A DNA stretch of 64,000 nucleotides from Terriglobia bacterium (GTDB lineage Bacteria > Acidobacteriota > Terriglobia > JAIQFV01), in NCBI GenBank assembly GCA_020072965.1, contig JAIQFY010000009.1, forward strand, positions 9,649 through 73,648, given 5' to 3'. Below, one piece after another: positions 1,954 through 63,514 of the stretch. Position 1 is the stretch's first letter. Every line of letters starts with the position of its first letter. Both the position numbers and the translations under genes were made by a program. The notes beneath the pieces are model-generated. The model did not search any database. It was given only the letters and a program-made list of their open reading frames with translations, and had not been told where the DNA came from.

Positions 1954-4239
1954 ATGAAGTTACTCAAAGGGATTTCTCTTGCGATTATTTTGCTCGGACC
2001 GGCCTCAGTCTTCTATTTTTCCCAGGAAGCCGAGGATCGGACACTTCTCTCCTGGCCGATCGTTCAGAAGATTGTGGACGAAGCCTCCGGGGACCGTGCT
2101 ATGCATACCCTTCTCGAAATTGCCCCATACCCCAGGCACCGCAGCAAAGAAGAGTATGAAAACAAATTCGCAGAGAGCGCTTACATTGAGCGAAAGGTTA
2201 GGGAATCCGGACTCGACGCAGTTTCCGTGGAGCGCTTTTCACCGGGAGGAGGCCCGGGGGGTGGAAGAGGAGACGGTGGAAACACACAGGCGCCCGCAAA
2301 TCCGTTTGCGGGGAAAGCATGGGAAGGTTCGACAGGCCAGCTCTGGATGGTGGAGCCCCGCCCTCATAAACTCCTCGACTATGCGGACGTTCCAACCATG
2401 CTCTGTGCGAACAGTGAAAATGGGGACTGGACAGCAGAGCTAATCGACGTTGGGGACGGGTCTCGCCCTGAAGATTACAAGGAAAAGGATATCAAAGGAA
2501 AAATCGTTCTCGGATCGGCCGGCCCCGGCGTGCTTCAGCGTATGGCGGTGTTTGAGCGGGATGCGATCGGGGTGATTTCGTACAATTCCTTGCGGCCGGA
2601 GTATGATGTCCAGCAGTCACTCTGGGAAAGCATTCAGCCCCAGCCTCCCAATCAACCCAGGTATGCGGGGAAGAAAGGAGGATTCGGGTTCAAGCTCAAT
2701 GCTGAGATGGGACACGGGCTGCGAACCCTGCTGGATCGAGGTACAAGAGTAAAGCTTCGGGCCGTCGTGCAGGCGGATTGGTATCCCAACACCATGGAAA
2801 CGGTGTTTGCCCGGATCGCAGGGGACGGATCGAGCGATCAGGAGATCATTCTCTCTGCACATCTCTACGAAGGCTACTTGAAACAAGGCGCCAACGATGA
2901 TGCCAGTGGCAGCGCTGCCATCCTCGAAGTGGCGCGAACACTGAACACTTTGATCCACAGTGGACAACTCCCCCGGCCCCGTCGAACCATCAATTTTCTA
3001 TGGGTGCCGGAAATCAGCGGTACCACGGCCTGGCTCCGCGCCCATGAGGAGATCCGCAAGAAACTCATCAACGACATCAATATGGACATGGTGGGGGAAG
3101 GACTACAGAAGAACAACGCCTCTTTTGTGCTGAGCCGGACGCCTGATACGACACCCAATTATCTGAACGATGTCATGCAGAGTGTTTTCGAGTTCATTGG
3201 AAACACCAACCGCGAACGGGTCCGCTATCGGGCCAACGGCTATGCCATGTCGTACCCAATCATTTCCTCAGTCGGTTCCGTCGAACCCTTCCACTTCAAT
3301 ATCGATAAACATTACGGGGCCTCGGACCATATCATTTACCTCAATAATGGAATCCCGGCTACGATGATGGGCGTGTGGCCGGACATGTGGTACCACTCCT
3401 CCGGCGATACTCCCGATAAGGCGGATCCCACTCAAATGAGACGCGCCGTGGTCCTCAGTGCCATGGGAGCTTACATCGTCGCTTCGGCGGACGATGCCGG
3501 GGCAGCCCGGATTGGCGCTGAGTCTCTGGCGAGAGGGGACGCCCGGATCGGCGACGCTCTTCGGAAGGGACTTGCTTATCTCGCCGATTGGAATTCAGAT
3601 CTGCTTCCCTCCGCCTACAAAGAAGCCATCAATACGGTCCGCCACCAGGGAAAGATCGAAAAAGGAACGATCGAGTCCTTGAAGATTCTGATGCCCCCTT
3701 CGATGACCGACATTGACAAGGGGAAAACCGTCGAACCGTTCCTTTCCCTCATCGATGAGAGAACCCGGGTGGCCGAGAAGGAGATCATGGAGTTTTATGT
3801 TGTCCGAACCAAACGGACTCCACCGGAGCTCACATTGACTGCGGAAGAGGCCAAGGCAGCGCGGTTGATCCCCGAGCGAACCGGAGGCCAGGGCGGGTTC
3901 GGAGGATTTGGAGGCGGGATCGCAAGGCTACTCGAGCAACAACCCGAAGCCGATCGTAAGGCCCTCGAGGAGGCGTTGAGAAAGGTTCCCCAGCACATGA
4001 CCGCGGAACTCAATGTGATGCTCACCCGAAACGGAAACAAGAATGATCCCCGCAAGTATTCGGTCCTGGATATCCGCGACTTTCTCTCGGGAGAATTTGA
4101 ACCGATCACCCTGGCTGACATGGTGACGTATTTCAATGCCCAGGAAAAACTCAAGGCGATCAAATTAATGGAAAGGGCGGAGGAACCAACGGCCCCGCCC
4201 CAAGGTCAGAAGGCTAAAGGGAAGAAGGCCAGAGCATAA
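1954..4239 (+). CDS. secreted M28-family zinc metallopeptidase with PA-like domain
   Basis: GGAGG ribosome-binding site 8 nt upstream. N-terminal signal peptide MKLLKGISLAIILLGPASVF. M28 metal-ligand motifs ANDDASGSAAILEVARTL and HSSGDTPDKADP. Gly-rich GGQGGFGGFGGG linker near the C-terminus. Confidence 0.8.
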   Translation: MKLLKGISLAIILLGPASVFYFSQEAEDRTLLSWPIVQKIVDEASGDRAMHTLLEIAPYPRHRSKEEYENKFAESAYIERKVRESGLDAVSVERFSPGGGPGGGRGDGGNTQAPANPFAGKAWEGSTGQLWMVEPRPHKLLDYADVPTMLCANSENGDWTAELIDVGDGSRPEDYKEKDIKGKIVLGSAGPGVLQRMAVFERDAIGVISYNSLRPEYDVQQSLWESIQPQPPNQPRYAGKKGGFGFKLNAEMGHGLRTLLDRGTRVKLRAVVQADWYPNTMETVFARIAGDGSSDQEIILSAHLYEGYLKQGANDDASGSAAILEVARTLNTLIHSGQLPRPRRTINFLWVPEISGTTAWLRAHEEIRKKLINDINMDMVGEGLQKNNASFVLSRTPDTTPNYLNDVMQSVFEFIGNTNRERVRYRANGYAMSYPIISSVGSVEPFHFNIDKHYGASDHIIYLNNGIPATMMGVWPDMWYHSSGDTPDKADPTQMRRAVVLSAMGAYIVASADDAGAARIGAESLARGDARIGDALRKGLAYLADWNSDLLPSAYKEAINTVRHQGKIEKGTIESLKILMPPSMTDIDKGKTVEPFLSLIDERTRVAEKEIMEFYVVRTKRTPPELTLTAEEAKAARLIPERTGGQGGFGGFGGGIARLLEQQPEADRKALEEALRKVPQHMTAELNVMLTRNGNKNDPRKYSVLDIRDFLSGEFEPITLADMVTYFNAQEKLKAIKLMERAEEPTAPPQGQKAKGKKARA

Positions 4240-4342: not shown

Positions 4343-4373
4343 GGGGGGCACCCGCCGCGGCGGGTGCCCCTAC
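4343..4373. repeat. REP-like perfect palindrome (GGGGCACCCGCCGCGGCGGGTGCCCC), family copy 1; a second hairpin GGGCGCACagccGTGCGCCC lies at 4298-4317
   Basis: Read directly from sequence. Lies between the convergent gene ends at 4239 and 4400. The same core recurs at 10559-10576 and 17444-17475. Confidence 0.6.
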
Positions 4374-10426: not shown

Positions 10427-10625
10427 ATGGTTTGGTAGCCCCGGCGAGTATTCTTCTCGCCGGGGGATTCTCCAGTTTGGGTAGTCCCGGTCCGAGGCGG
10501 CGTCCGCCATTATTGCTGGCGGATCGCCGGGGGGGGGGCCAGCTTTGGTAGCCCCGGCGAGCCCGCCGCGGCGGGCCGGGGGATCTTCCCCGCGGCTCAC
10601 AGAAGCCCCGGTTTGCCATAGCGGG
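10427..10625. repeat. intercistronic cluster of GC-rich hairpins including a REP-like palindrome GAGCCCGCCGCGGCGGGC (family copy 2) and a TTTGGTAGCCCCGGCGAG direct repeat (3-4 copies)
   Basis: Hairpins read from sequence: CCCCGGCGAGtattcttCTCGCCGGGG (10436-10465) and CCGCCAttattgcTGGCGG (10504-10522). TTTGGTAGCCCCGGCGAG sits at 10430 and 10543, with variants at 10471 and 10603. The whole block lies between the large-subunit stop (10655) and the PLP gene start (10393). Confidence 0.5.
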
Positions 10626-17443: not shown

Positions 17444-17475
17444 GTAGGGGCGCCCGCCGCGGCGGGCGCCCCTAC
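17444..17475. repeat. REP-like perfect 32-nt palindrome GTAGGGGCGCCCGCCGCGGCGGGCGCCCCTAC, family copy 3
   Basis: Read from sequence. Located in the boxC-boxR divergent promoter region. Confidence 0.6.
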
Positions 17476-18342: not shown

Positions 18343-18575
18343 GGCGGGTGGACGGGGTGACGCACACATCGCGTTTTGTGTGATGTGTGCGAGTCATTAG
18401 ATTGAATGCAGTTCCGTCGTGGGTTCAGAAAGATGTCTCTGGAGATTCAAAGGAAACTGGTATAAGGAAATGAGTTGGTTCAGGAATGAAGGGCTTATGA
18501 CAAATGTTTCCCACAGAAGAAGGACCGCACACATGCCAAGAACGCCTATGTGCGCCACCCGGCCGATCCTACCGA
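18343..18575. repeat. copy A of a duplicated ~230-bp non-coding element (begins with hairpin CGCACACATCGCG..GATGTGTGCG and contains GATGTCTCTGGAGATTCAAAG)
   Basis: Aligns block-wise with 58075-58300. Shared hairpin, a shared 21-mer, and a shared ...CGCACACAYGC.AAGAAC.C.T.TGCGCCACCC segment. No conserved ORF between the copies. Confidence 0.5.
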
Positions 18576-18907
18576 CAAGCTGAGATGATATAACATGTTA
18601 TCGATGTGATTTCCCACACTCTTTTTGAGCTTCTTGTTATCTATTGCATCAATGGATTTCTTCGCAGGGAATGCAGGTTATTCTCCAACAACAGGCTTGG
18701 ACAGCAGTGGGGTGTATCTTATCGACTGGAATCCTCGAGACAAGCTCGGCGAGATGGCACGCGGAAAGGGAATCCATGACTCTGTTTGCCACATAGACCT
18801 GCTGAATGTGACAACCAAAACATGAGGGGTCAGGCACCACCATTCGACAATTGCGATAAAAAGAGAACGTAAGCTCGCTTGCTTCTCCCCTAAGAATTTG
18901 CTGAGTT

Positions 18908-19259
18908 GTCGAATGTCGGTGCCTGACCCGAATGGCGCTTAGACCCGAATGGCGCTTAGTTAAGAAATTGAGATGGAGATTGATCCGCTTCCCTGAAGGG
19001 GAAGTCTTCAATAGCCCAGGGTTGGCCGCCTTGCGGCCTACCCTGGGTGGGGATCGCCCGAAGAGAAGAAGGAACCCTGAAGGGGTTCCTTCCCCACGAG
19101 GATCTGGGTTCGATCCAGCCAAAATATGATCAAAGACTCCTCCGGCCCCCCCTGCGCGGTGACTGGGACTGTCATAAACCTGTTCTCTGGGATGGGGCTA
19201 GATCCGTTTTACCATTCTCTTAACTTAGCGCCATTCGGAGTCAGGCGCCGACATTCGAT
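18908..19259. mobile_element. MITE-like ~350-bp element with ~35-bp terminal inverted repeats and a highly structured interior
   Basis: Left end GTCGAATGTCGGTGCCTGACCCGAATGGCGCTTAG, followed by a duplicated ACCCGAATGGCGCTTAG. Right end CTAAGCGCCATTCGGAGTCAGGCGCCGACATTCGAT, its reverse complement. Interior hairpins: CTTCCCtgaaGGGGAAG, CCCAGGGT...ACCCTGGG, GGAACCCtgaaGGGGTTCC. Solo copies of the terminal-repeat core lie at 18826-18848 and 19949-19971. Confidence 0.45.
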
Positions 19260-19717
19260 TTTCCTGATGCAGCGTTCAATATTTCTTGAAGCTCCTCGAC
19301 GAGGGGATGGCGGGTAAACCCGTGAAAAAACCGAAAAGGCGGCATGAACACCACTTTCGTTCCGAACTCGGTGGGCCGTCGGAATCGGAGCCACATGAGC
19401 TCCGGGTTTACCAATAGACTCCCCGAGACCCGCTCAACGTCGCGGAGCGGCACCTCGATCTCGGTCTCGAAGTTGGAGATCAATAAAACGTCCCCACGAA
19501 GGCGAACTCGTTTGAGCCGCATGCAGGACCAGTAGAATAAAACGGTGCCGAAAACGGTCACGGCCAGGAAGACCCATCCAAGTTCTCGAAAATCTCTTAC
19601 TCCCCAGGAATTGGGCGCGATTATCATACTTAGCGAGATGGCGGCAAAACCACCGATCCATAGCGCTGGGAGTGCGAACTTGTAAAACCAAGTCCATTTA
19701 GACGAAAGGTCTCGCAT
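19241..19717 (-). CDS. hypothetical membrane protein
   Basis: 158-aa ORF with two or three hydrophobic helices (FYKFALPALWIGGFAAISLSMII and WVFLAVTVFGTVLFYW). Its 3' end overlaps the right end of the MITE-like element, so coding status is uncertain. Confidence 0.4.
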   Translation of the reverse strand: MRDLSSKWTWFYKFALPALWIGGFAAISLSMIIAPNSWGVRDFRELGWVFLAVTVFGTVLFYWSCMRLKRVRLRGDVLLISNFETEIEVPLRDVERVSGSLLVNPELMWLRFRRPTEFGTKVVFMPPFRFFHGFTRHPLVEELQEILNAASGKSNVGA

Positions 19718-19998
19718 AGTCTTCTTGTCGCCGACTAACTAATACAGGGAAAGATGAATTCTTTTCGGGTCAGATAACGACCTTAAATGATCCAACAAAT
19801 TTTTGATTGCCCCTTCAGGGCAAACCACGAATGAATGATGATCATCCCTCCCAGGGCGGCGCCCTGGGCTTTTGAAGGCCGCCCTTTCAGGGCAGGCGAA
19901 TAGGTATTGGCATCTCTGACACGGACAAGATCCGATAAAACATGGGGGGGCAGGCACCGACATTCCACGACTTCAGTCGTGCCTGCTCGGAACACCCC

Positions 19999-22336: not shown

Positions 22337-23185
22337 TCATCCTAAGCCGTCTTCGTCGGAGGCTCCACGAGCTTCGAACCCCGCCTCGCCCTTCCGCACA
22401 AACGATTCCAGACGGTCAAGAAAATCCGGCGATGAGAAGCATTCAAATTGAGCTTCCAGTTCCCGATCGAGCGCCTCTCGAAACGCCTCTTCAGAATAAC
22501 GTATCAGCGATTGTTTCATCAGCTTCAGGGAGAGTGCCGCGCGAGAGGCAACGATCTTTGAAAGCGAGACCGCAGCCGCGGGCAGTCCTTCCGCCGGGAC
22601 GACCCGACTGACCAAGCCAATCCGGTAGGCTTCCATCGCCGTGATCGTCTCCGCCGTAAAGAGCAATTCCCGGGCCTTCGATTCACCCACCAGCCGTGGC
22701 AAGAGGAATGAGGCGCCAAAGTCCGCATGGACCCCGACCTTGGCAAAGGCCTGGGTAAAAGTGGCGGATTCACTCGCAATACGGATGTCGCAGGCCATGG
22801 CGATGGATGCGCCGCCTCCGGCGGCGGGCCCGTTCACCGCGGCGATGACCGGCACGGGCAACTGTCTTAGAAACGTCACAACGCGACGGCCTCCTTCGAG
22901 AAGCCGATGGAACTCCTCCACTCGATTGTCTCGACGTAACGCCACCAGATAATCAAGGTCAGCTCCGGCGCAAAAACCGCGACCCGACCCCGTCAGCAGG
23001 ACACACCGAAGGGTCTTTTCCTCGTGCGAGAAAGAAGCGAGCGCCTCCCCCAGCGACTGAATCATCTCCGTATCGAAGGCATTCAACTTCGAAGGTCGAT
23101 TCAGGGTGATCGTGGCAACATGATCATGTTTTGCAATCAGGATTGAAGTTGCCTGCATTGGAACCATCTCCCACACCGCTCCCAC
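22337..23185 (-). CDS. enoyl-CoA hydratase/isomerase family protein
   Basis: Crotonase fold: GRGFCAGADL oxyanion-hole motif and AAVNGPAAGGGASIAMACD. Likely start at the internal MQATSIL. Confidence 0.8.
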   Translation of the reverse strand: MGAVWEMVPMQATSILIAKHDHVATITLNRPSKLNAFDTEMIQSLGEALASFSHEEKTLRCVLLTGSGRGFCAGADLDYLVALRRDNRVEEFHRLLEGGRRVVTFLRQLPVPVIAAVNGPAAGGGASIAMACDIRIASESATFTQAFAKVGVHADFGASFLLPRLVGESKARELLFTAETITAMEAYRIGLVSRVVPAEGLPAAAVSLSKIVASRAALSLKLMKQSLIRYSEEAFREALDRELEAQFECFSSPDFLDRLESFVRKGEAGFEARGASDEDGLG

Positions 23186-25533: not shown

Positions 25534-25969
25534 ATTAGGATGGATTTTGCAATTAAGAGAGTAAACAAAGCATCCCGCAGCGAGCGGGATACCTGTCCGC
25601 CCTCACGGGGATGGTTTGGAATTTCGGTTGAAGAATTCAAAAAATAGTGGCTGGCTTAGACCTGATTTCCGAATTTGCCAGCCATTCTCTTGTTCAGTTC
25701 GTTTGCATGGGGAAAGGTTGAAGTGATTCTGCCTTGGCACAAAGGGTGATGCCGCCCGCCAAGGCGGGCTGCGTGGTTGAAGGCTGGTGCCCTCCTGGGG
25801 CTCGCGCCCCAGGCTATTTCATTTCGCCGCTGTGCGGCTTTAAGTATGGATCCAACTCCGGAACGCGGGTTGAAATCCGAACACGCTTCGAACCCTTGAC
25901 TTCTCACCCTATGCCAATAATTAGCTGTCCCCCGTTGACGTGGTCTATACCTTGGCGCCGATTCCATTC

Positions 25970-43017: not shown

Positions 43018-45393
43018 ATGAAACGGCTAACATCGAAATTAATTACGAACAGCGTTTTAATCCTTGCCTTTTTGCTTTTCGCAACCGGGTTTTCCTGGAC
43101 TCAGGATGACTCCTATCCCCAGAACGGACAGAATGGGGATCAGGGTTATCAGGGCCGCGTTTTGCGCCTCAGCCTGGTGGAAGGTGACGTTTCACTCCAG
43201 CATGGACCCAATGACCAATGGCTGGATGCCACCATCAACGCTCCCCTTTTAGTGGGGGACCGATTGTGGGTAGGGGATCAAGGCCGAGCGGAAATCGAGT
43301 TTGACGACGGCTCCTATGTCCGGCTGGCTTCCAACAGCGTTTTCGAAATCCAGCAGCTCGACCAGTCTTCGAACGGTCGATACACTCAAGTCTTTCTGAG
43401 CCAGGGACTCGCCTACTTCAATGTTCGTCAGAGCTATAACGACACCTTTCGAGTGACTACCCCCGCGCTGGCGGCTGATGCCTATAATGGAGGCGCCCGT
43501 TTCCGCCTGGAAGTCGACGGCCGGAATGATTTGACAGTATTCCAGGGGGAAATTCAGATAAACAGCCACGCCGGCAGTGCGACGGTGCGCGCCAACGAGC
43601 TGTTCTCGCTTCCTAATGGCGAAAATAGCCAATATTACCTGGGCCGGGCCGGCAACCGCGATGATTGGGACCGCTGGAACTCCGAGCGGGATGATTACCT
43701 TTCTCGAGCGAGCAGCTATCATTATCTGCCGTCTTCGGTCAACTATGGGGCCTACGATCTCGATCACTATGGCCACTGGGTCTACCAGAATGGCTACGGT
43801 TACGTGTGGTTCCCTTATAACGTCGATGATGGATGGGTTCCGTACAGCTACGGCCGTTGGGCGTGGTACCCGAACATGGGCTATTCCTGGGTATCCTATG
43901 AGCCGTGGGGATGGCTCCCCTATCACTATGGCGGTTGGGATTGGTTCGCGGGCTTCGGGTGGGCCTGGTGCCCTGGGACATCGTTCGGGTTCTTTAGCCC
44001 CCACCGGGCATTTTTTTTCAACTTTGGAACCTTTGTGGGATGGTGCCCGTTTTCACCCTTTGACCGCTTCTTTTTTGGGACCTCATTCTTCAGCATCCAC
44101 ACATTCCGCCCTCACAATTTTTTCAACAACCGGATTGTTGTGGTGAACAATAATGATTTCAACCATAATGTCATCACGCGGCAGAGCATGGTGCGGAATC
44201 GTGAGGTCATCTCGCAGGCGACCTCCAACAGCAACCTGCAACTGGGGGTGCGACCACGAGTGGAACGGGTTTCGGGCTCAGAAGTGTTGAGGCCATCCTC
44301 ATTCGCCAACAGCTCAGCAGCGCGAATCTCTACCGATACGAAGGGATGGACTCGTCAGGACGGAATTCGCGGTACCGGCGCGCGACCCGCTGAAACTTTG
44401 CGAACCGGTCAACCTTTGGGAGGCGCGGCAGGGGCGAATCGTGATGCGATCCGGGCCGGCTCGGGAAACAACGGCGCCGTCATTAATAATCGAGAGAACA
44501 CGGGACGGCGGGGTGAAGTGATTAATCCTGCCGGGACCGCGGCCGAGGCGGCTTCAGGTGTGCGTGGAGAAAGGGTCAACCGCGGAACGTCTCAGGCGCC
44601 AGCAATGCGGGTACCCTATTCAGGAAATAGTGGGGGTGCCAACGGACGCTCTGAGATTCGCAACCAGGGTGTTCCAAATCCAGCGTCGGTCAATGGATCC
44701 CGGGGTGAGGGAGTCCGGCCGCAAGCACCTGCAGTCCAGGCGCCTCGCAACAACGACTCTCGTGGGACAGCACCTCGACAGGAAGTGATCCGTCCGGAAT
44801 CGAGGCCTGTCGCTCCGTCCTCACCGTCGCGAAGTGAGAATAAGACGACCGGGACTGATAAACCCAAGACAACCTCTTCGCTGCGCAATGAGTCAGGGTC
44901 GCAGTGGAGAAATTATGCGGAACAGAATCCGGGAGCGCGCGATAGTGCGCGCTCTTCATTTGACAGCACCCGCCCCAGTTATAATTCCGAGGGGACAGGA
45001 CGAATCGAGCGGGTGGGACCCAACTCATATACATCAACCTATAACGCACCGCCCGCCAGTCGGAACGATGTGCGATCCGCTTATACGCCATCGGCGGGAA
45101 GATCCAGTTACTCAGCTCCTTCGCCAAGAACCGAAGCGCCGCGCTATTCTGCTCCTTCACCTGTCGCGCCCCGGTATGCAGCGCCCAGTCAGAGCTTTTC
45201 AGGGCCGCGTCAGAGCTACTCCGCACCCTCCATGCCACGACAAGAATCTTCAAGGCCAAGCTACTCCGCTCCTCACTATTCGGCCCCTTCCCCCACATTC
45301 CGCAGCGCCCCCGCACCTCGTGGCGAATCCCGCTCGAGTGGTGGCGGTAGCAGTGGACGCACCTCCGGCTCTCCAAGATCCGCCCGGCGATAA
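43018..45393 (+). CDS. secreted FecR-domain protein with Trp/Tyr/Gly-rich core and ~400-aa Ser/Pro/Arg-rich disordered tail
   Basis: Signal peptide. FecR-like block LSLVEGDVSLQHGPNDQWL...GDRLWVGDQGRAEIEFDDGSYVRLASNSVFEI. Core WVYQNGYGYVWFPY...GWDWFAGFGWAWCPG. Tail repeats of (S/P)YSAPS and PRYSAPSP. Confidence 0.65.
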   Translation: MKRLTSKLITNSVLILAFLLFATGFSWTQDDSYPQNGQNGDQGYQGRVLRLSLVEGDVSLQHGPNDQWLDATINAPLLVGDRLWVGDQGRAEIEFDDGSYVRLASNSVFEIQQLDQSSNGRYTQVFLSQGLAYFNVRQSYNDTFRVTTPALAADAYNGGARFRLEVDGRNDLTVFQGEIQINSHAGSATVRANELFSLPNGENSQYYLGRAGNRDDWDRWNSERDDYLSRASSYHYLPSSVNYGAYDLDHYGHWVYQNGYGYVWFPYNVDDGWVPYSYGRWAWYPNMGYSWVSYEPWGWLPYHYGGWDWFAGFGWAWCPGTSFGFFSPHRAFFFNFGTFVGWCPFSPFDRFFFGTSFFSIHTFRPHNFFNNRIVVVNNNDFNHNVITRQSMVRNREVISQATSNSNLQLGVRPRVERVSGSEVLRPSSFANSSAARISTDTKGWTRQDGIRGTGARPAETLRTGQPLGGAAGANRDAIRAGSGNNGAVINNRENTGRRGEVINPAGTAAEAASGVRGERVNRGTSQAPAMRVPYSGNSGGANGRSEIRNQGVPNPASVNGSRGEGVRPQAPAVQAPRNNDSRGTAPRQEVIRPESRPVAPSSPSRSENKTTGTDKPKTTSSLRNESGSQWRNYAEQNPGARDSARSSFDSTRPSYNSEGTGRIERVGPNSYTSTYNAPPASRNDVRSAYTPSAGRSSYSAPSPRTEAPRYSAPSPVAPRYAAPSQSFSGPRQSYSAPSMPRQESSRPSYSAPHYSAPSPTFRSAPAPRGESRSSGGGSSGRTSGSPRSARR

Positions 45394-45529
45394 GTCAGCC
45401 GGCGTCGGTCTTCACACCCTTCATTTCCAAGAATGTCAACCGCTCCGGAATGCCGGAGTGATTCTTATTTTTACCAGGATTCCTAAGTTGGCCCCTGTTT
45501 TAAGCCGCGCAGCGGCGAAATAAAGTAAC

Positions 45530-46262
45530 CTGGGGCGTGAGCCTCAGGACCGGGCGACAAGAATAGAATGACAGTCCGCCTTGGCGGACGAAAGAGCGCG
45601 ACAGGAGCGTGGATGCCAACCTAAATCAGTGTTACAATTCAGTGGCGTGATTCCCCCCAGAAGGTCTCAGTAAACCCACATCCCCCGAACAGAGGTCCTC
45701 ACATGGCCACGAGTTATACATCCCTGCGTTTTCACGTTCTCTTCAGTACCAAGAATCGTATGAGATGGATTACAAAAGAATGGGAAGAGGAGCCCTACTC
45801 CTACCTCGCGGGCATCCTTCGGGAAGAACGAGGCCGGCTTCTGAGGGGAACGGAATGGACGACCATGTTCATCTTCTCCTCGTGCTCAGGGCTGACCAGT
45901 CCCTCACCGAGATCATGCGGATCTTGAAATCAAATTCCTCGAGGTGGATTCATGAAAAATCGAGGGAGCGCTGGAGGTTTGAATGGCAACGTGGATATTT
46001 CGGGGTCACAGTGACCAAGTCCCAGGTGGAGCGAGTCCGGCAATACATCAAAAATCAAAAGCAGCACCACCAGCGAGTCAGTTTTCAGGAGGAATTTTTG
46101 AGGTTGCTCAAGGCACATCAAATTGAATTCGACGAACGTTATGTTTGGAAATAATGATCCGGGCATAACTGTCGTCCGCCAAGGCGGACTCAATCTTCTC
46201 CTATTGCACCGAAACCTGAGGCTCACGCCTCAGGCTACGAATAGGCCGTCCGCACAAGGCGG
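45530..46262. mobile_element. IS200/IS605-type (RAYT-like) element: tnpA flanked by inverted hairpin-containing ends
   Basis: Upstream GCGTGAGCCTCAGG...AGTCCGCCTTGGCGGACGAAAG. Downstream GTCGTCCGCCAAGGCGGACT...CCTGAGGCTCACGCC, its reverse complement. An extra GTCCGCACAAGGCGGAC hairpin lies at 46246. Confidence 0.5.
45703..46154 (+). pseudogene. tnpA: IS200/IS605-family Y1 (HuH) transposase TnpA, interrupted by an apparent frameshift near 45840-45860
   Basis: Frame 1 gives SLRFHVLFSTKNRMRWITKEWEEEPYSYLAGILREERG. Frame 2 gives GMDDHVHLLLVLRADQSLTEIMRILKSNSSRW...WQRGYFGVTVTKSQVERVRQYIKNQ, carrying the HuH and catalytic Tyr motifs. Together they cover a complete TnpA. Confidence 0.6.
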
Positions 46263-46315
46263 ACTCTAAACCGACATGTTCAAATGTCTATCACCCTCAA
46301 GAGATTACGCACTCT

Positions 46316-47260
46316 TCAGGAGTTTTGTCGATTGGTGTGCAGCTTCCGAAACGCAACCGGAGGGAATTGATACTCAGAAGCCAGCTCCGGGTGAATCATC
46401 ACTGCCAGCATCTCGAGGCTGTCGATGATGCGCGGTCCCGGGCGGCTGAAGTACTGGTTTCCGTCGGCGATGAAGACGTGCTGGTTGAGAACGGCCGGTA
46501 GACATTGCCACTCCCTGACACTCTTCAACTGCGCGACTTCGCGGAGAGTCCGGTCGATCGAGAATCCGCAGCAGCTGATGACAACGATTTCTGCGGCAAA
46601 ATCGAGGATCTCCTGGCACTCCACACGCCGCGAGGGTTGACCCGACTTCGCGATTCGATCCACTCCGCCGGCAATCTCAACCAATTCACCATTCCAGTGT
46701 CCACCGGAAAACGGCGGATGGAGCCACTCCATCAGGAAGGTCCGCGGGCGCGTGTCAATCCGCGAAACCAGTGATCTCACCCGTTCGACACGGCGCTGGA
46801 GCAAGCTGATGACCGCTTCGCCTTGTTCAGAGCACCCAGTCATTCGGGCTACGGTCCGGATGTTCTCAAAGATATCCTGCAACCGCATCGGCTCCAGATT
46901 GACCACCCGGGGCGAATGGACCAACCCTTTGACTGCATCTTTCACATAATCGTACGAAACCGCGCACACGCTGCAAAGCTGTTGAGTCAGGATCAGATCC
47001 GGCTGAAGGCGCTTCAGTAATTCAAAATCCAAATCATAGAGCGTTCCCGCCTCGTGCAACTTTTCCCTGACCTCATGGTCGATCGTTTCGCTCGGCTGGT
47101 CCGAATCCACCAGCGCCCGGGTAATCCGGGGCTTGCTTCGAGCCTCAACCGGAAAGTCGCACTCGTGGGACACGGCGACCAGGTCATCGCCTAAACCAAG
47201 GGCGTACACAATTTCAGTGGCACTGGGAAGCAGGGAGACGATTTTCATGGCTTGGGGCAA
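46316..47260 (-). CDS. BtuF/FecB-like (class III periplasmic-binding-fold) cobalamin/iron-complex binding protein, no obvious signal peptide
   Basis: MKIVSLLPSATEIVYALGLGDDLVAVSHECDFP N-terminal block typical of BtuF-type binding proteins. Confidence 0.7.
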   Translation of the reverse strand: MPQAMKIVSLLPSATEIVYALGLGDDLVAVSHECDFPVEARSKPRITRALVDSDQPSETIDHEVREKLHEAGTLYDLDFELLKRLQPDLILTQQLCSVCAVSYDYVKDAVKGLVHSPRVVNLEPMRLQDIFENIRTVARMTGCSEQGEAVISLLQRRVERVRSLVSRIDTRPRTFLMEWLHPPFSGGHWNGELVEIAGGVDRIAKSGQPSRRVECQEILDFAAEIVVISCCGFSIDRTLREVAQLKSVREWQCLPAVLNQHVFIADGNQYFSRPGPRIIDSLEMLAVMIHPELASEYQFPPVAFRKLHTNRQNS

Positions 47261-52958: not shown

Positions 52959-53996
52959 TTAATTCGTCTTCTGATGAAAATATTTTGCAAACTGTTCCAA
53001 GGCGTCAAAGAGCCGCGGGCCCGGGCGGCTGGCATTGTCCTCGACTTTGAAGATCCGGTTCGTCTGTACCGCCGTCGTGTGGCTCCAGCCCGGCCAGGAT
53101 CTCATTTGTTCGATCGCGGGAGAGTTTCCGTTATTTTTCGGGAGAAGGATGATTTCCGGGTCGCGCCTTACAATTTCCTCCAGCGACAATTGCGCCCAGT
53201 CCTGTTTTAGATCGCCGCTGATCGATTCGCCCCCCGCAAGCGAAATCAGATCTGTAATATAGGCCCCGCGTCCCGGCACGCTGATCGGGTTGTACCAAAC
53301 CAGGTAGAGCACCCGAGGCCGGGGCCGTCCCGCCACTTGATTCACGACCGCGTCCCGGCGTTCCCGAAGTGAACGAACGAGGGCGTCCGCTTGGGCCTGG
53401 TTTCCGGTCAACGCGCCGACATCCTCCAAGGCTCGGAAGACATCGTCGACAGACGTCGTGTGCACCCCGTAGAGAGGAATGCCAAAGTGCATCAGCTCGT
53501 CCGCCACAGCAATCTTGTTAATCTCAGGCGTTCCAATCACCAGGTCCGGATGCAGAGAGACGATCACTTCGATGTTGGGATCGATCAATCCCCCCACGCT
53601 GGGCTTCTGCCGGACCTCCGGGGGGTAATCACAATAATCGCTGCGGCCCACCACTCTCTGAGCCAAACCGAGGGCATAGAGAAGTTCGGTGACACTCGGG
53701 GCGATGGAAATGATGCGCTGGGGATGCTCGGGAACCATCACCGTCCGGCCGGTTTCGTCGATGACTTTGCGGTTGGCGGCGGGAGCGAGTATTGGAAAAA
53801 TCAACAGTAACCAGAGTGGGAGGAGAAGTTGCCAGTTGCCAGTGGCCAGTTGCCTAAGTGCAGTTGTCAGTTGTCGGTTCTCAGTTCTCAGTTCCAGGTA
53901 GTCAGTTGCCAGTGGCCAGAAAGACCAGGAGCGGGACTTCGAAGGAATACTGTCAACTCTTGAGCTTCTCATTCTGATGATATTCAATGGAGACAT
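52959..53996 (-). CDS. periplasmic substrate-binding protein of the BtuF/FecB type; true start uncertain because the N-terminal 50 codons are encoded by a heptamer repeat
   Basis: Binding-protein blocks IISIAPSVTELLYALGL and VIVSLHPDL. Signal-like LLLPLWLLLIFPILAPAA follows the repeat-encoded WPLATDYLELRTENRQLTTALRQLATGNWQ. Confidence 0.7.
   Translation of the reverse strand: MSPLNIIRMRSSRVDSIPSKSRSWSFWPLATDYLELRTENRQLTTALRQLATGNWQLLLPLWLLLIFPILAPAANRKVIDETGRTVMVPEHPQRIISIAPSVTELLYALGLAQRVVGRSDYCDYPPEVRQKPSVGGLIDPNIEVIVSLHPDLVIGTPEINKIAVADELMHFGIPLYGVHTTSVDDVFRALEDVGALTGNQAQADALVRSLRERRDAVVNQVAGRPRPRVLYLVWYNPISVPGRGAYITDLISLAGGESISGDLKQDWAQLSLEEIVRRDPEIILLPKNNGNSPAIEQMRSWPGWSHTTAVQTNRIFKVEDNASRPGPRLFDALEQFAKYFHQKTN
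53828..53919. repeat. CAGTTSY heptamer-repeat block with internal direct repeat CAGTTGCCAGTGGCCAG (x2)
   Basis: Read from sequence. A related GCTGAT repeat lies at 54041-54082. Confidence 0.55.
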
Positions 53997-54294
53997 GGCA
54001 CATCCAAGAATAAAGGAGCAAGCCTTTCAGCCGGGACTTGCTGAAAGCTGATTGCTGATAGCTGATCGCTGACAGCTGTTCACTTCAAAAAAATACCCCA
54101 TGCATCTTCGTTGGAAAACGCACGGGGCAATAAACTTTGTCCACGGGCCCTTTGACGCGAAGAGCACAACTTTGGAGTCGTGAACCTGAAGGAACAAAGC
54201 CGTTGAGCATCGCTATGGATGCCAGTCCTTCGGCTTCAATCCCTGGGTTTCGCTGGTTCCAGGCAGGTCTCCTGACTTGACCACTCTCGGTTGC

Positions 54295-54445
54295 GTTCTC
54301 GCCTTCCCATCCCGCTGAAGCGGGGCAGTGGTTTTGAACCCGGAAGCGTGGTCTCACAGTGGCGCGACCGTCGCCGACTTTCACGGCGTTCCCTTTTTGA
54401 CTCCGACCTTTCGGAGTGCCTGAAACCGCTGAGAAAGATCACAGT
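54295..54445 (-). ncRNA. cobalamin (B12) riboswitch leading the btuF-permease-ATPase-TonB-receptor operon
   Basis: Minus-strand RNA contains GGGAAcgccGTGaAAgTCggcgacgGTCGCGCCACTGTGA. This matches the GGGAAnnnGGTGnAAnTCC...CCCGCnACTGT core. Further 3' it contains CCACTG...GGGAAGGC (B12 box and 3' element). Position is appropriate for a B12-uptake operon. Confidence 0.5.
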
Positions 54446-58074: not shown

Positions 58075-58300
58075 GGGGCGGGGTGGCGCACACATCGCGT
58101 TGGATGCGATGTGTGCGAGTCATCTGAGGAAGGGAGTTCCACTGCCGGTTTAGAACGATGTCTCTGGAGATTCAAAGAAAATGGCTCCATCGAGATGAGT
58201 TGCTGTTGGGACGAAATGATTCACGTTAAATGTCTGCCAAAAAAAAGAAACGCACACACGCAAAGAACACGTGTATGCGCCACCCAGCCCATATGGCACT
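58075..58300. repeat. copy B of the duplicated ~230-bp non-coding element (see 18343-18575)
   Basis: Shares the CGCACACATCGCG..GATGTGTGCGAGTCAT hairpin, GATGTCTCTGGAGATTCAAAG, and the ...TGCGCCACCC segment with copy A. Lies directly after a gene stop, as copy A does. Confidence 0.5.
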
Positions 58301-62795: not shown

Positions 62796-63223
62796 GGTGG
62801 ATTACTCGAGAAAATGTGAAAGTTGATCGTGTGGCCTGCCCCTGGTTGATTAAGCGTTTTATCGATTCGAGCGCGGAATTTATCTTTTGTCCAGAAGACC
62901 GTATCGTGGATCGGGCCAGCGAACTACAAGCGACACCTTTTGACGTCCCCAAAAACCCTGCGATTAAATTGAATCATCGCGATGGAAAATGTTCATTTGA
63001 AACTATCCTCGAAGAATTCCACTTAACTGGGAATCCCGCACTGGCGCGACTCGCTCTCATCGTGCATGGGGCCGATATCCCCAGTGAAATGCATGTCGCC
63101 CCCGAAAGCGCGGGGCTCTACGCGATTGCCAATGGATTTTCCAAAACCTGCACCTCCGATGATGAGCGCCTGGAAAAGCAATTTCCGGTTTATGATGCGT
63201 TGTATGAATTCTGCAAGAAGTGA
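62792..63223 (+). CDS. stand-alone chromate-resistance (ChrB C-terminal-like) domain protein
   Basis: MRWITRENVKVDRVACPWLIKRFIDSSAEFIF parallels the C-terminal domain block of the 60544 gene. Confidence 0.65.
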   Translation: MRWITRENVKVDRVACPWLIKRFIDSSAEFIFCPEDRIVDRASELQATPFDVPKNPAIKLNHRDGKCSFETILEEFHLTGNPALARLALIVHGADIPSEMHVAPESAGLYAIANGFSKTCTSDDERLEKQFPVYDALYEFCKK

Positions 63224-63230
63224 GAAGAAG

Positions 63231-63494
63231 TTGTCAGTTCTCAGTTGCCAGTTGCCAGAAGGCAGTTGTCAGTTCTCAGTTCTCAGTTGTCAGTTGAAGT
63301 ACTCCCGCGCTCCGTGACTCTCCAATCTGGCTGCATACGCAACTCACATCCAGTCTGGCGCGACATCGAAAGAAAGGAATTGAGTGGTCAGTTGTGATTG
63401 AGGTCCACTTCCGTTCTCTGACCTCTGGCTATTCTTTCAAACCACTGAAGTCTCTCTCTTCACTGATAACTGAGAACTGAGAACTGACAACTGC
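63231..63494. repeat. CAGTTSY heptamer-repeat arms in inverted orientation flanking ~160 bp
   Basis: Left arm 63231-63297 (GTTGTCAGTTCTCAGTTGCCAGTTGCCAG...CAGTTCTCAGTTCTCAGTTGTCAGTTG). Right arm 63461-63494 (CACTGATAACTGAGAACTGAGAACTGACAACTGC). Confidence 0.55.
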
Positions 63495-63514
63495 TCTTAA
63501 ACAAGGAGCCCAAT

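Follow-up and report, generated by a model that had tools for sequence, protein, structure and literature searches.

A unit of 763 bp (positions 45503-46265) lies in the gap between two convergent genes in the 64-kb stretch of Terriglobia (Acidobacteriota) DNA analysed here, which we refer to as the window. It consists of one Y1/HUH transposase gene, tnpA, between two inverted three-hairpin modules, and two thirds of each module, the hairpin hpA and the outer of two hpB hairpins, is what Rfam names Acido-Lenti-1 RNA (RF01687). We consider it likely that the unit is a dead copy of an element related to the insertion sequence (IS) IS200, and that Acido-Lenti-1 is the DNA partner of such elements, comparable to a repetitive extragenic palindrome (REP) or a miniature inverted-repeat transposable element (MITE). 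This reading is built on what was observed of the anatomy of the unit, the family of its gene, the association of the modules with homologous genes across phyla, their dispersal to sites that lack the gene and the difference between relatives with and without the whole unit.

Weinberg et al. 2010 (PMC2864571) based their description of Acido-Lenti-1 on 89 examples, among whose sources are Lentisphaera araneosa and Koribacter versatilis. Many of these occur in arrays, covariation led to the motif being rated as probably RNA, and no function was proposed. No literature linking it to a transposase was found in a search that left most subscription journals outside its reach.

The unit and its inverted ends

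Read outward from the gene, each side of tnpA carries the same order of features: (T)nTGTC-[hpB]-(C)T, 22-30 nt, [hpA, loop CTnACG]-GCTA, about 8 nt, and a second [hpB]-CT. The inner and outer hpB are labelled hpB1 and hpB2 below. hpA and the outer hpB were scored both with Rfam's model and with R1, a 46-column covariance model of these two hairpins built from a subset of the published seed and six local sequences; the inner hpB was characterised separately with a hairpin script. A covariance model of all three hairpins, from a MAFFT alignment of 19 whole modules, was dropped because the variable spacer left the alignment too ragged. The features of the unit and of three further modules in the window are as follows.

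45503-45597, minus strand: left end module, read outward from the gene (inverted repeats, DNA fold, alignment to the right end)
45574-45589, minus strand: left hpB1, GTCCGCC-AA-GGCGGAC on that strand
45529-45548, minus strand: left hpA
45504-45516, minus strand: left outer hpB2, with the module terminus CT at 45503
45503-45548, minus strand: match to RF01687 Acido-Lenti-1, covering left hpA and outer hpB (Rfam 48.5 bits, gathering score 37; R1 53.1 bits)
45598-45702, plus strand: leader from the left module to the start codon (read from the sequence)
45703-45842, plus strand: 5' part of tnpA in frame 1, residues 1-46 and two bases of codon 47 (open reading frame (ORF) list; Pfam Y1_Tnp positions 2-44)
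45842-45843, plus strand: site of a 1-nt deletion (codon alignment with homologues L049, L050, L052 and L053)
45843-46154, plus strand: 3' part of tnpA in frame 2, with HUH residues H55/H57, W95-Q96, Y115, Q119, H122-H123, C-terminal tail and stop codon (Pfam positions 45-121, alignment with IS608 TnpA 2a6m, invariant columns in 58 homologues)
46166-46265, plus strand: right end module (inverted repeats; DNA fold -25.3 kcal/mol, z -5.6)
46174-46189, plus strand: right hpB1
46215-46234, plus strand: right hpA
46249-46263, plus strand: right outer hpB2, with the module terminus CT at 46264-46265
46215-46265, plus strand: sub-threshold Acido-Lenti-1 match, covering right hpA and outer hpB (29.5 bits, gathering score 37; R1 29.3 bits)
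18985-19095, minus strand: solo module whose hpA loop encloses an additional small hairpin (R1 21 bits at 18989-19047; fold z -6.5)
19801-19896, plus strand: solo three-hairpin module, diverged (Rfam 38.2 bits at 19850-19894; fold z -2.8)
25746-25840, plus strand: solo three-hairpin module (Rfam 51.7 bits at 25794-25839; fold z -3.1)

By Rfam's model, then, Acido-Lenti-1 copies bracket tnpA and both face outward, the right copy being sub-threshold (E 1.6e-4 in a 1-kb search). The hairpin that a preliminary description of this DNA had reported in each end is indeed there: the inner hairpins are GTCCGCCTTGGCGGAC at 45574-45589 and GTCCGCCAAGGCGGAC at 46174-46189, and the hairpin pattern gives four matches in the window, far above the mean of 0.1 in shuffles of it. 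The inverted ends that the same description had put at about 55 bp do contain inverted arms (45525-45548 with 46215-46238, 92% complementary; 45573-45594 with 46169-46190, 95% complementary), but full alignment extends them to some 95-100 nt, with 71 identical positions of 95-100 and a score of 33 against -13.8 ± 4.5 for shuffles. The left limit accordingly moves from the 45530 given there to 45503, and the right limit is 46265. Folded as DNA, the left module forms three hairpins (-16.8 kcal/mol, z -2.1), and all five of the module copies in the window fold as single-stranded DNA into the same three. hpB has a conserved unpaired 5' foot, (T)nTGTC, and GCTA comes after hpA; there is no GT[AG]G foot.

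The suspected tie to a repeat family of the window is borne out by the modules at 18985-19095, 19801-19896 and 25746-25840, the last of which has stems that differ from those of the copies flanking tnpA through compensatory changes. An extra small hairpin within the hpA loop is seen in some copies (window 18989-19047; locus L004 at about 3490-3570; the right flank of L013, where it is of the hpB type), and such nesting points to the CTnAC loop as a hotspot or target for insertion. Between the minus-strand module at 18985-19095 and the plus-strand module at 19801-19896, in a geometry like that around tnpA, lies an ORF of 158 aa (19241-19717, minus strand) with no Pfam or NCBIfam match and a hydrophobic N-terminal half that looks membrane-spanning; its position could be due to chance, or it could be a passenger gene.

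Scanned for promoters and terminators, the interval 45350-46400 has no site within the element that exceeds chance expectation. The sole terminator-like site of the scan, at 45441-45460, is part of the upstream FecR-like gene and is kept in the empty sites described below. Within the leader, TGTTACAAT at 45630-45638 might be read as resembling an extended -10 box, and the leader of the close homologue L049 contains CGTTATAAT; the promoter scan of the same interval made no call at TGTTACAAT.

The transposase and its broken reading frame

That two frames jointly encode a Y1 transposase, as the preliminary description proposed, is confirmed. Frames 45703-45927 (74 aa) and 45765-46154 (129 aa) each cover half of Pfam Y1_Tnp (positions 2-44 and 45-121), and when joined they match PF01797 with 97 bits (E 1.1e-27, cut-off 23). 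HVHLLL and YFGVTV are both present, but the latter, earlier taken for the tyrosine motif, is a conserved strand; alignment to IS608 TnpA places the catalytic Tyr at Y115, in RQYIKNQ. H55, H57, Y115 and Q119 align with H64, H66, Y127 and Q131 of that enzyme, Q119 being the metal-ligand glutamine, and these residues together with H122/H123 are invariant or nearly so among 58 homologues, in which E131 and D144 are also conserved. The joined protein scores 74 bits against NCBIfam transpos_IS200 (NF033573, cut-off 55) and only 34 bits against REP_Tyr_transpos (NF047646, cut-off 80). An AlphaFold model of the intact homologue P0001 (84% identical; predicted local distance difference test score 91.8) finds its best PDB matches in the TnpA proteins of ISDra2 and IS608 (E 2.5e-9 and below), the structure 4ER8 of the E. 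coli REP-associated tyrosine transposase (RAYT) coming 30th with E 2.4e-5.

With DHVH, WQ and YIKNQKQHH in a protein of 150 aa that has a conserved tail, tnpA agrees with the entry for subclass 1.2 in the published motif table (Table 1) of Quentin et al. 2018 (PMC6006769). It is an IS200/IS605-superfamily Y1 gene that fits TnpAY1 subclass 1.2 by its sequence motifs. Those authors describe the subclass as of low copy number, with no IS features and no REPs, and keep it apart from the IS200 transposases for its low copy number and absent IS features. Two other placements were rejected. Class 3 of the same classification, which is found in Acidobacteria and Planctomycetes with CnGA-footed hairpins, has NHVH, W[TA], Y----Q and about 178 aa, and the published alignment of the acidobacterial TIRYTs of Di Nocera et al. 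2013 (PMC3733652) shows Y..NP class-2 proteins.

The switch of frame, previously located only to the region near 45840-45860, is a deletion of one nucleotide that codon alignment pins to 45842/45843. The missing base is the third of a Leu codon, four intact homologues having CTN GAG GGN where the window has ct-gagggg; the intact homologues P0001-P0004, all single-frame, read RLLEGNGMDDHVH at this site. A stretch of 811 nt (45490-46300) is base-for-base identical in four assemblies, namely three from separate sequencing runs and one ENA assembly. Because the frameshifted sequence is identical in all four, a one-off sequencing or assembly error is unlikely, which leaves the first of the two origins offered in the preliminary description, decay or a sequencing indel, as the one that fits: the copy looks decaying, and the deletion is real in the source population. 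Since it splits the gene after codon 46, so that no intact reading frame remains, the copy is very probably inactive, and by itself it is an ordinary pseudogene. A protein search returned four intact homologues (150-151 aa, 75-84% identity) and a 99-aa protein, annotated in a Terriglobia/Acidobacteriia metagenome-assembled genome, that is 100% identical to the 3' part of tnpA. Additional tnpA copies, which had been envisaged earlier, are absent from the 64-kb window.

It might be argued that the frameshift is no defect, either because it reflects systematic sequencing error or because full-length enzyme is made by programmed -1 ribosomal frameshifting. Such an argument could draw on the run of four G that adjoins the shift and on the downstream frame, which is open for about 80 nt upstream of it. 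It has to contend with the identity of the sequence across four assemblies from different runs, with the single frame of four out of four close homologues, in which the extra base stands at exactly the position of the deletion, and with the protein search, which returned no intact allele more than 84% identical. Nor is a canonical X XXY YYZ slippery heptamer seen when the sequence at the site is read directly; on this ground, and on that of the single-frame homologues, programmed frameshifting was rejected. We regard a frameshift of either innocuous kind as highly improbable.

Modules and movement beyond the unit

Rfam's own model finds left(-)/right(+) pairs of Acido-Lenti-1 around the homologues L004, L008, L009 and L015, four of the first 20 loci, one of which belongs to a Phycisphaerales genome. 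With R1 at E <= 0.01 over 44 genome loci, 44 of 52 matches are no more than 250 nt from the gene, in a zone that makes up 9.1% of the flanking bases (p ~6e-38); when placement is confined to intergenic DNA and the share of the zone is assumed to be 46%, p is still ~9e-9. A match near the gene is present in 20 of these loci, and in nine the left(-)/right(+) pair is complete. Visual inspection shows inverted modules of comparable hairpins on both sides of the genes at loci in Bacteroidota, Pasteurellaceae, Pyrinomonadaceae and Planctomycetota (Planctomycetia). On this partly visual reading of flanking sequence, homologous genes in four phyla appear to carry similar inverted modules.

The modules are far more often found without the gene than with it. 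A metagenome scan by the hpA pattern gave at least 120 stretches, and the 80 analysed (442 kb) hold 165 R1 matches and a single tnpA homologue, itself flanked by two minus-strand matches on the left and a plus-strand match on the right. Neighbouring matches form 40 (-)(+) doublets, 17 tandem pairs with a period of 65-72 nt, and nine (+)(-) pairs. The (-)(+) doublets have the same mutual orientation as the modules around tnpA but are about 100 nt apart, and as far as sequence can tell they are gene-less versions of the element. Over 147 copies the end is sharp, the information content falling from 1.4-1.6 bits to approximately zero immediately past the terminal CT. Long same-strand arrays of modules with a period of about 72 nt occur in the metagenome contigs L110 (2610-3086) and L133 (2100-2500) and agree with the 74-nt arrays of the published Lentisphaera seed; from this period it follows that what repeats is a basic unit of hpB, spacer, hpA and linker.

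The unit as a whole is present or absent between related genomes. Two related Terriglobia genomes keep the neighbours FecR/DUF6600, Peripla_BP_2, MOSC and TonB-dependent receptor, with Peripla_BP_2 proteins 85% and 78% identical to that of the window, and their spacers between the convergent genes measure 132 nt and 102 nt, with no Y1_Tnp gene, against 922 nt in the window. The simplest history is one gain in the lineage of the window. Moreover, the close homologues of tnpA (75-84% identical) are surrounded by unrelated genes, which indicates movement of the whole unit. An attempt to define the junction and target at the nucleotide level, by comparing the window after removal of the element with the empty sites L177 and L179, was abandoned since the spacers are too diverged; on the sequences at hand, the empty-site comparison establishes the presence or absence of the block only.

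Whether the motif acts as DNA or RNA can be judged from its pattern of pairing. Among 143 distinct copies, 98.4% of stem cells are paired, with 133 double-changed cells against 6 wobble cells, and a subset of the published seed repeats this near-pure Watson-Crick covariation. There are 20-23 A.C cells, where the opposite strand would have a wobble pair, to 6 G.T cells. A DNA-level element is favoured by the almost purely Watson-Crick covariation, the wobble asymmetry, the inverted placement, the doublets and the arrays, and these features suggest that Acido-Lenti-1 is probably the DNA repeat of a transposase family rather than RNA. The opposite view, in which it is a genuine small or cis-acting RNA that regulates the adjacent transposase gene as a terminator or antisense RNA and is no DNA substrate, has in its favour the judgement of Weinberg et al. 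2010 from covariation, and the T-rich spacer that the inner hpB often precedes in doublets, which is terminator-like. It is very unlikely, however, given that the copies on either side of the gene are on opposite strands, which means that only one of them can have the sense of the mRNA, and that just 6 G.U cells are seen among some 1,850, mismatches that would wobble on the other strand being 3-4 times commoner. It also sits badly with the occurrence of the motif, in many different settings, as inverted doublets and as tandem arrays of about 72 nt, with the abrupt end of conservation at one nucleotide, as at a transposon end, and with the failure of the terminator scan of 45350-46400 to find anything in the modules.

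The surroundings of the unit deserve brief mention. The adjoining gene (46316-47260, minus strand) encodes a cobalamin-binding Peripla_BP_2 protein, and a cobalamin riboswitch (RF00174, 99 bits) lies at 54245-54438 on the minus strand, so this region of the genome appears to be devoted to B12 uptake. The window also holds repeats of other kinds. A separate family of GC-rich palindromes, GGGGCRCCCGCCGCGGCGGGYGCCCC, at 4345-4373, 10556-10576, 17447-17475 and 22563-22583 is probably another REP-like repeat. A repeat of about 140 nt at 18350-18490 and 58076-58215 (72-88% identical) contains the hairpin CGCACACATCGCG...CGATGTGTGCG and has no Rfam match at the gathering threshold. Arrays of CAGTTNN with a 7-nt period (e.g. 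GTTGCCAGTTGCCAG), direct and inverted, are found at 53820-53920, 63222-63295 and 63462-63504, and an inverted-repeat family, GGGTCAGGCACCnnCATTCGACAA, occurs at 18827-18850, 18906-18929 and 19947-19972, in a cluster that shares its repeat-rich stretch with two of the modules.

Interpretation and comparison with known systems

By analogy with IS608, ISDra2 and E. coli TnpAREP, an intact Y1 enzyme of this kind would bind the hairpins while the DNA is single-stranded. It would then cut at the outer hpB, directly behind the CT of its 3' foot, where conservation stops, and move the whole unit, gene-less inverted doublets or single modules. The other three modules of the window might be relics, or substrates of another tnpA copy elsewhere in the genome. 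If this mechanism holds, Acido-Lenti-1 is a DNA repeat like a REP, a REP doublet forming hairpin (REPIN) or a MITE, and not a small RNA (sRNA). Binding, the site of cleavage and mobilisation are the parts of the scheme that we infer.

Several points weigh against an IS200-related element with Acido-Lenti-1 as its DNA partner. Inverted ends are at odds with the same-strand geometry of IS608. A match to R1 lies near the gene in only 20 of the 44 loci, and elsewhere the likeness rests on reading flanks by eye; R1 moreover includes six sequences from the window and these loci, the key matches having first been found with Rfam's independent model, before R1. The metagenome loci were chosen by motif, and many contigs are short, so that 165 to 1 is not a ratio of copies per genome. 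The empty sites L177 and L179 are too diverged to give the exact insertion junction, and Quentin et al. (PMC6006769) report no REPs for subclass 1.2.

Two more conventional readings have to be set beside this one, and each accounts for part of the evidence. A canonical RAYT or REPtron of the kind known from E. coli and Pseudomonas, that is a domesticated, vertically inherited and immobile gene with no activity beyond the spreading of REPs, would explain why inverted copies of a dispersed palindromic repeat flank the gene, why the inverted doublets are REPIN-like and why the subclass has a low copy number (PMC6006769). It seems unlikely here, as the REP_Tyr_transpos score falls far below its cut-off (34 bits against 80), the tyrosine motif is YIKNQ where a RAYT would have Y---NP, a GT[AG]G foot is missing from the hairpins and 4ER8 is only 30th among the fold matches. 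The gene and both modules are absent as a block at the same site in two related genomes, and close homologues lie in unrelated neighbourhoods.

The alternative that the unit is simply a decaying IS200 copy, with the usual subterminal end hairpins and no relation to the other hairpin copies of the window, is rather improbable. Its ends are inverted repeats of about 95-100 nt; the module occurs solo, in gene-less doublets and in arrays far oftener than with the gene; the signature Y---Q--HH is that of subclass 1.2, which Quentin et al. (PMC6006769) set apart from IS200; and there is one tnpA copy in 64 kb. These features have to be balanced against a transpos_IS200 score above the cut-off, a length of 763 bp that is typical of IS200, a fold closest to that of IS608 and ISDra2 TnpA, and the lack of the whole unit at the syntenic site of the relatives. 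When the preliminary description offered RAYT or IS200, it was right about an IS200/IS605-superfamily Y1 gene with hairpin-bearing inverted ends, but the unit is neither a canonical RAYT by its sequence nor, because its ends are inverted repeats, a typical IS200.

If an IS200-related element with its own DNA repeat is the correct description, Acido-Lenti-1, which has been without a function since 2010, gains a concrete role, forming the inverted ends of a Y1 element and also its derivatives that lack the gene. RF01687 matches in Acidobacteriota, Planctomycetota and Lentisphaerota would then probably be repeat DNA and not sRNA genes, and subclass 1.2, listed without REPs or IS features, would acquire a candidate partner repeat. 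The unit mixes an IS trait, the presence or absence of the block, with REP/RAYT traits, the inverted flanks and REPIN-like doublets, which bears on the domestication of RAYTs from IS200-like elements. A bolder version of this proposal, which we offer only tentatively, is that Acido-Lenti-1 is the single-stranded DNA substrate of the widespread and hitherto partner-less subclass 1.2, an intermediate between IS and REP/RAYT that spans at least four phyla. Because the ends are inverted, both strands would in that case be processed at the identical hpB-CT site, unlike in IS608, and the TGTC foot might provide a link to the orphan CGTC-tagged REP superfamily.

Among known systems, IS200, IS608 and ISDra2 share with the unit the HUH/Y1 fold and catalytic residues, a single small tnpA, a length of about 0.7 kb and end hairpins, and transposition through single strands without target duplication would be a further likeness by inference. 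IS200/IS605 elements of the IS608 and ISDra2 type have dissimilar ends, both acting on one strand. The ends described here differ in being inverted repeats of a module that is also found solo, in doublets and in arrays.

RAYT/REP/REPIN systems (E. coli TnpAREP, Pseudomonas) resemble the unit in that inverted short palindromes flank a Y1 gene and the repeat is far commoner than the gene, often as doublets. E. coli TnpAREP reportedly cleaves at a CT dinucleotide, and the end of the element is here also marked by CT. The differences lie in the protein, which is of class 1 (Y---Q) and not class 2 (Y---NP), in the three-hairpin module, which has no GTAG foot, and in the presence or absence of the whole unit between related genomes.

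Subclass 1.2 as published (PMC6006769) agrees in its motifs DH[IV]H, WQ and YIKNQK(E/Q)HH, in a length of about 148-150 aa with a C-terminal tail, in its low copy number and in a core close to that of IS200 transposases. According to that paper the subclass has no REPs, is as a rule without terminal hairpins of the IS200 type and belongs mostly to Cyanobacteria and Bacteroidetes, whereas the gene here is from Acidobacteriota, has homologues in Planctomycetota, Bacteroidota and Pasteurellaceae, and carries dispersed inverted three-hairpin flanks. RF01687 is matched in its two-hairpin architecture, CTnACG loop, GCTA linker and terminal CT, the left end and two of the three solo copies being above the gathering threshold. 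Rfam treats it as an sRNA gene without known function, sometimes near group II introns; here it brackets a Y1 gene.

The TIRtrons and TIRYTs of Di Nocera et al. 2013 (PMC3733652) are likewise acidobacterial tyrosine transposase genes with long terminal inverted repeats, some in repeated families, although the TIRYTs (aba 1552, aba 3477, tsa 392 and others) have the Y..NP class-2 signature and longer N-termini and form a different family. The same paper describes TGTC variants of the CGTC tag and a CGTC REP superfamily without known transposase. The conserved unpaired TGTC 5' foot of hpB is like the tags of these REPs, a matter of resemblance only: the published stems are of 8-9 bp, start with A/T pairs and have a CCA tail, whereas hpB stems are of 5-7 bp and GC-rich, with a single T or CT tail. 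Taken together, the association of module and gene is a variation on the known REP/RAYT and IS200 theme, and the copy itself is an ordinary member of known families.

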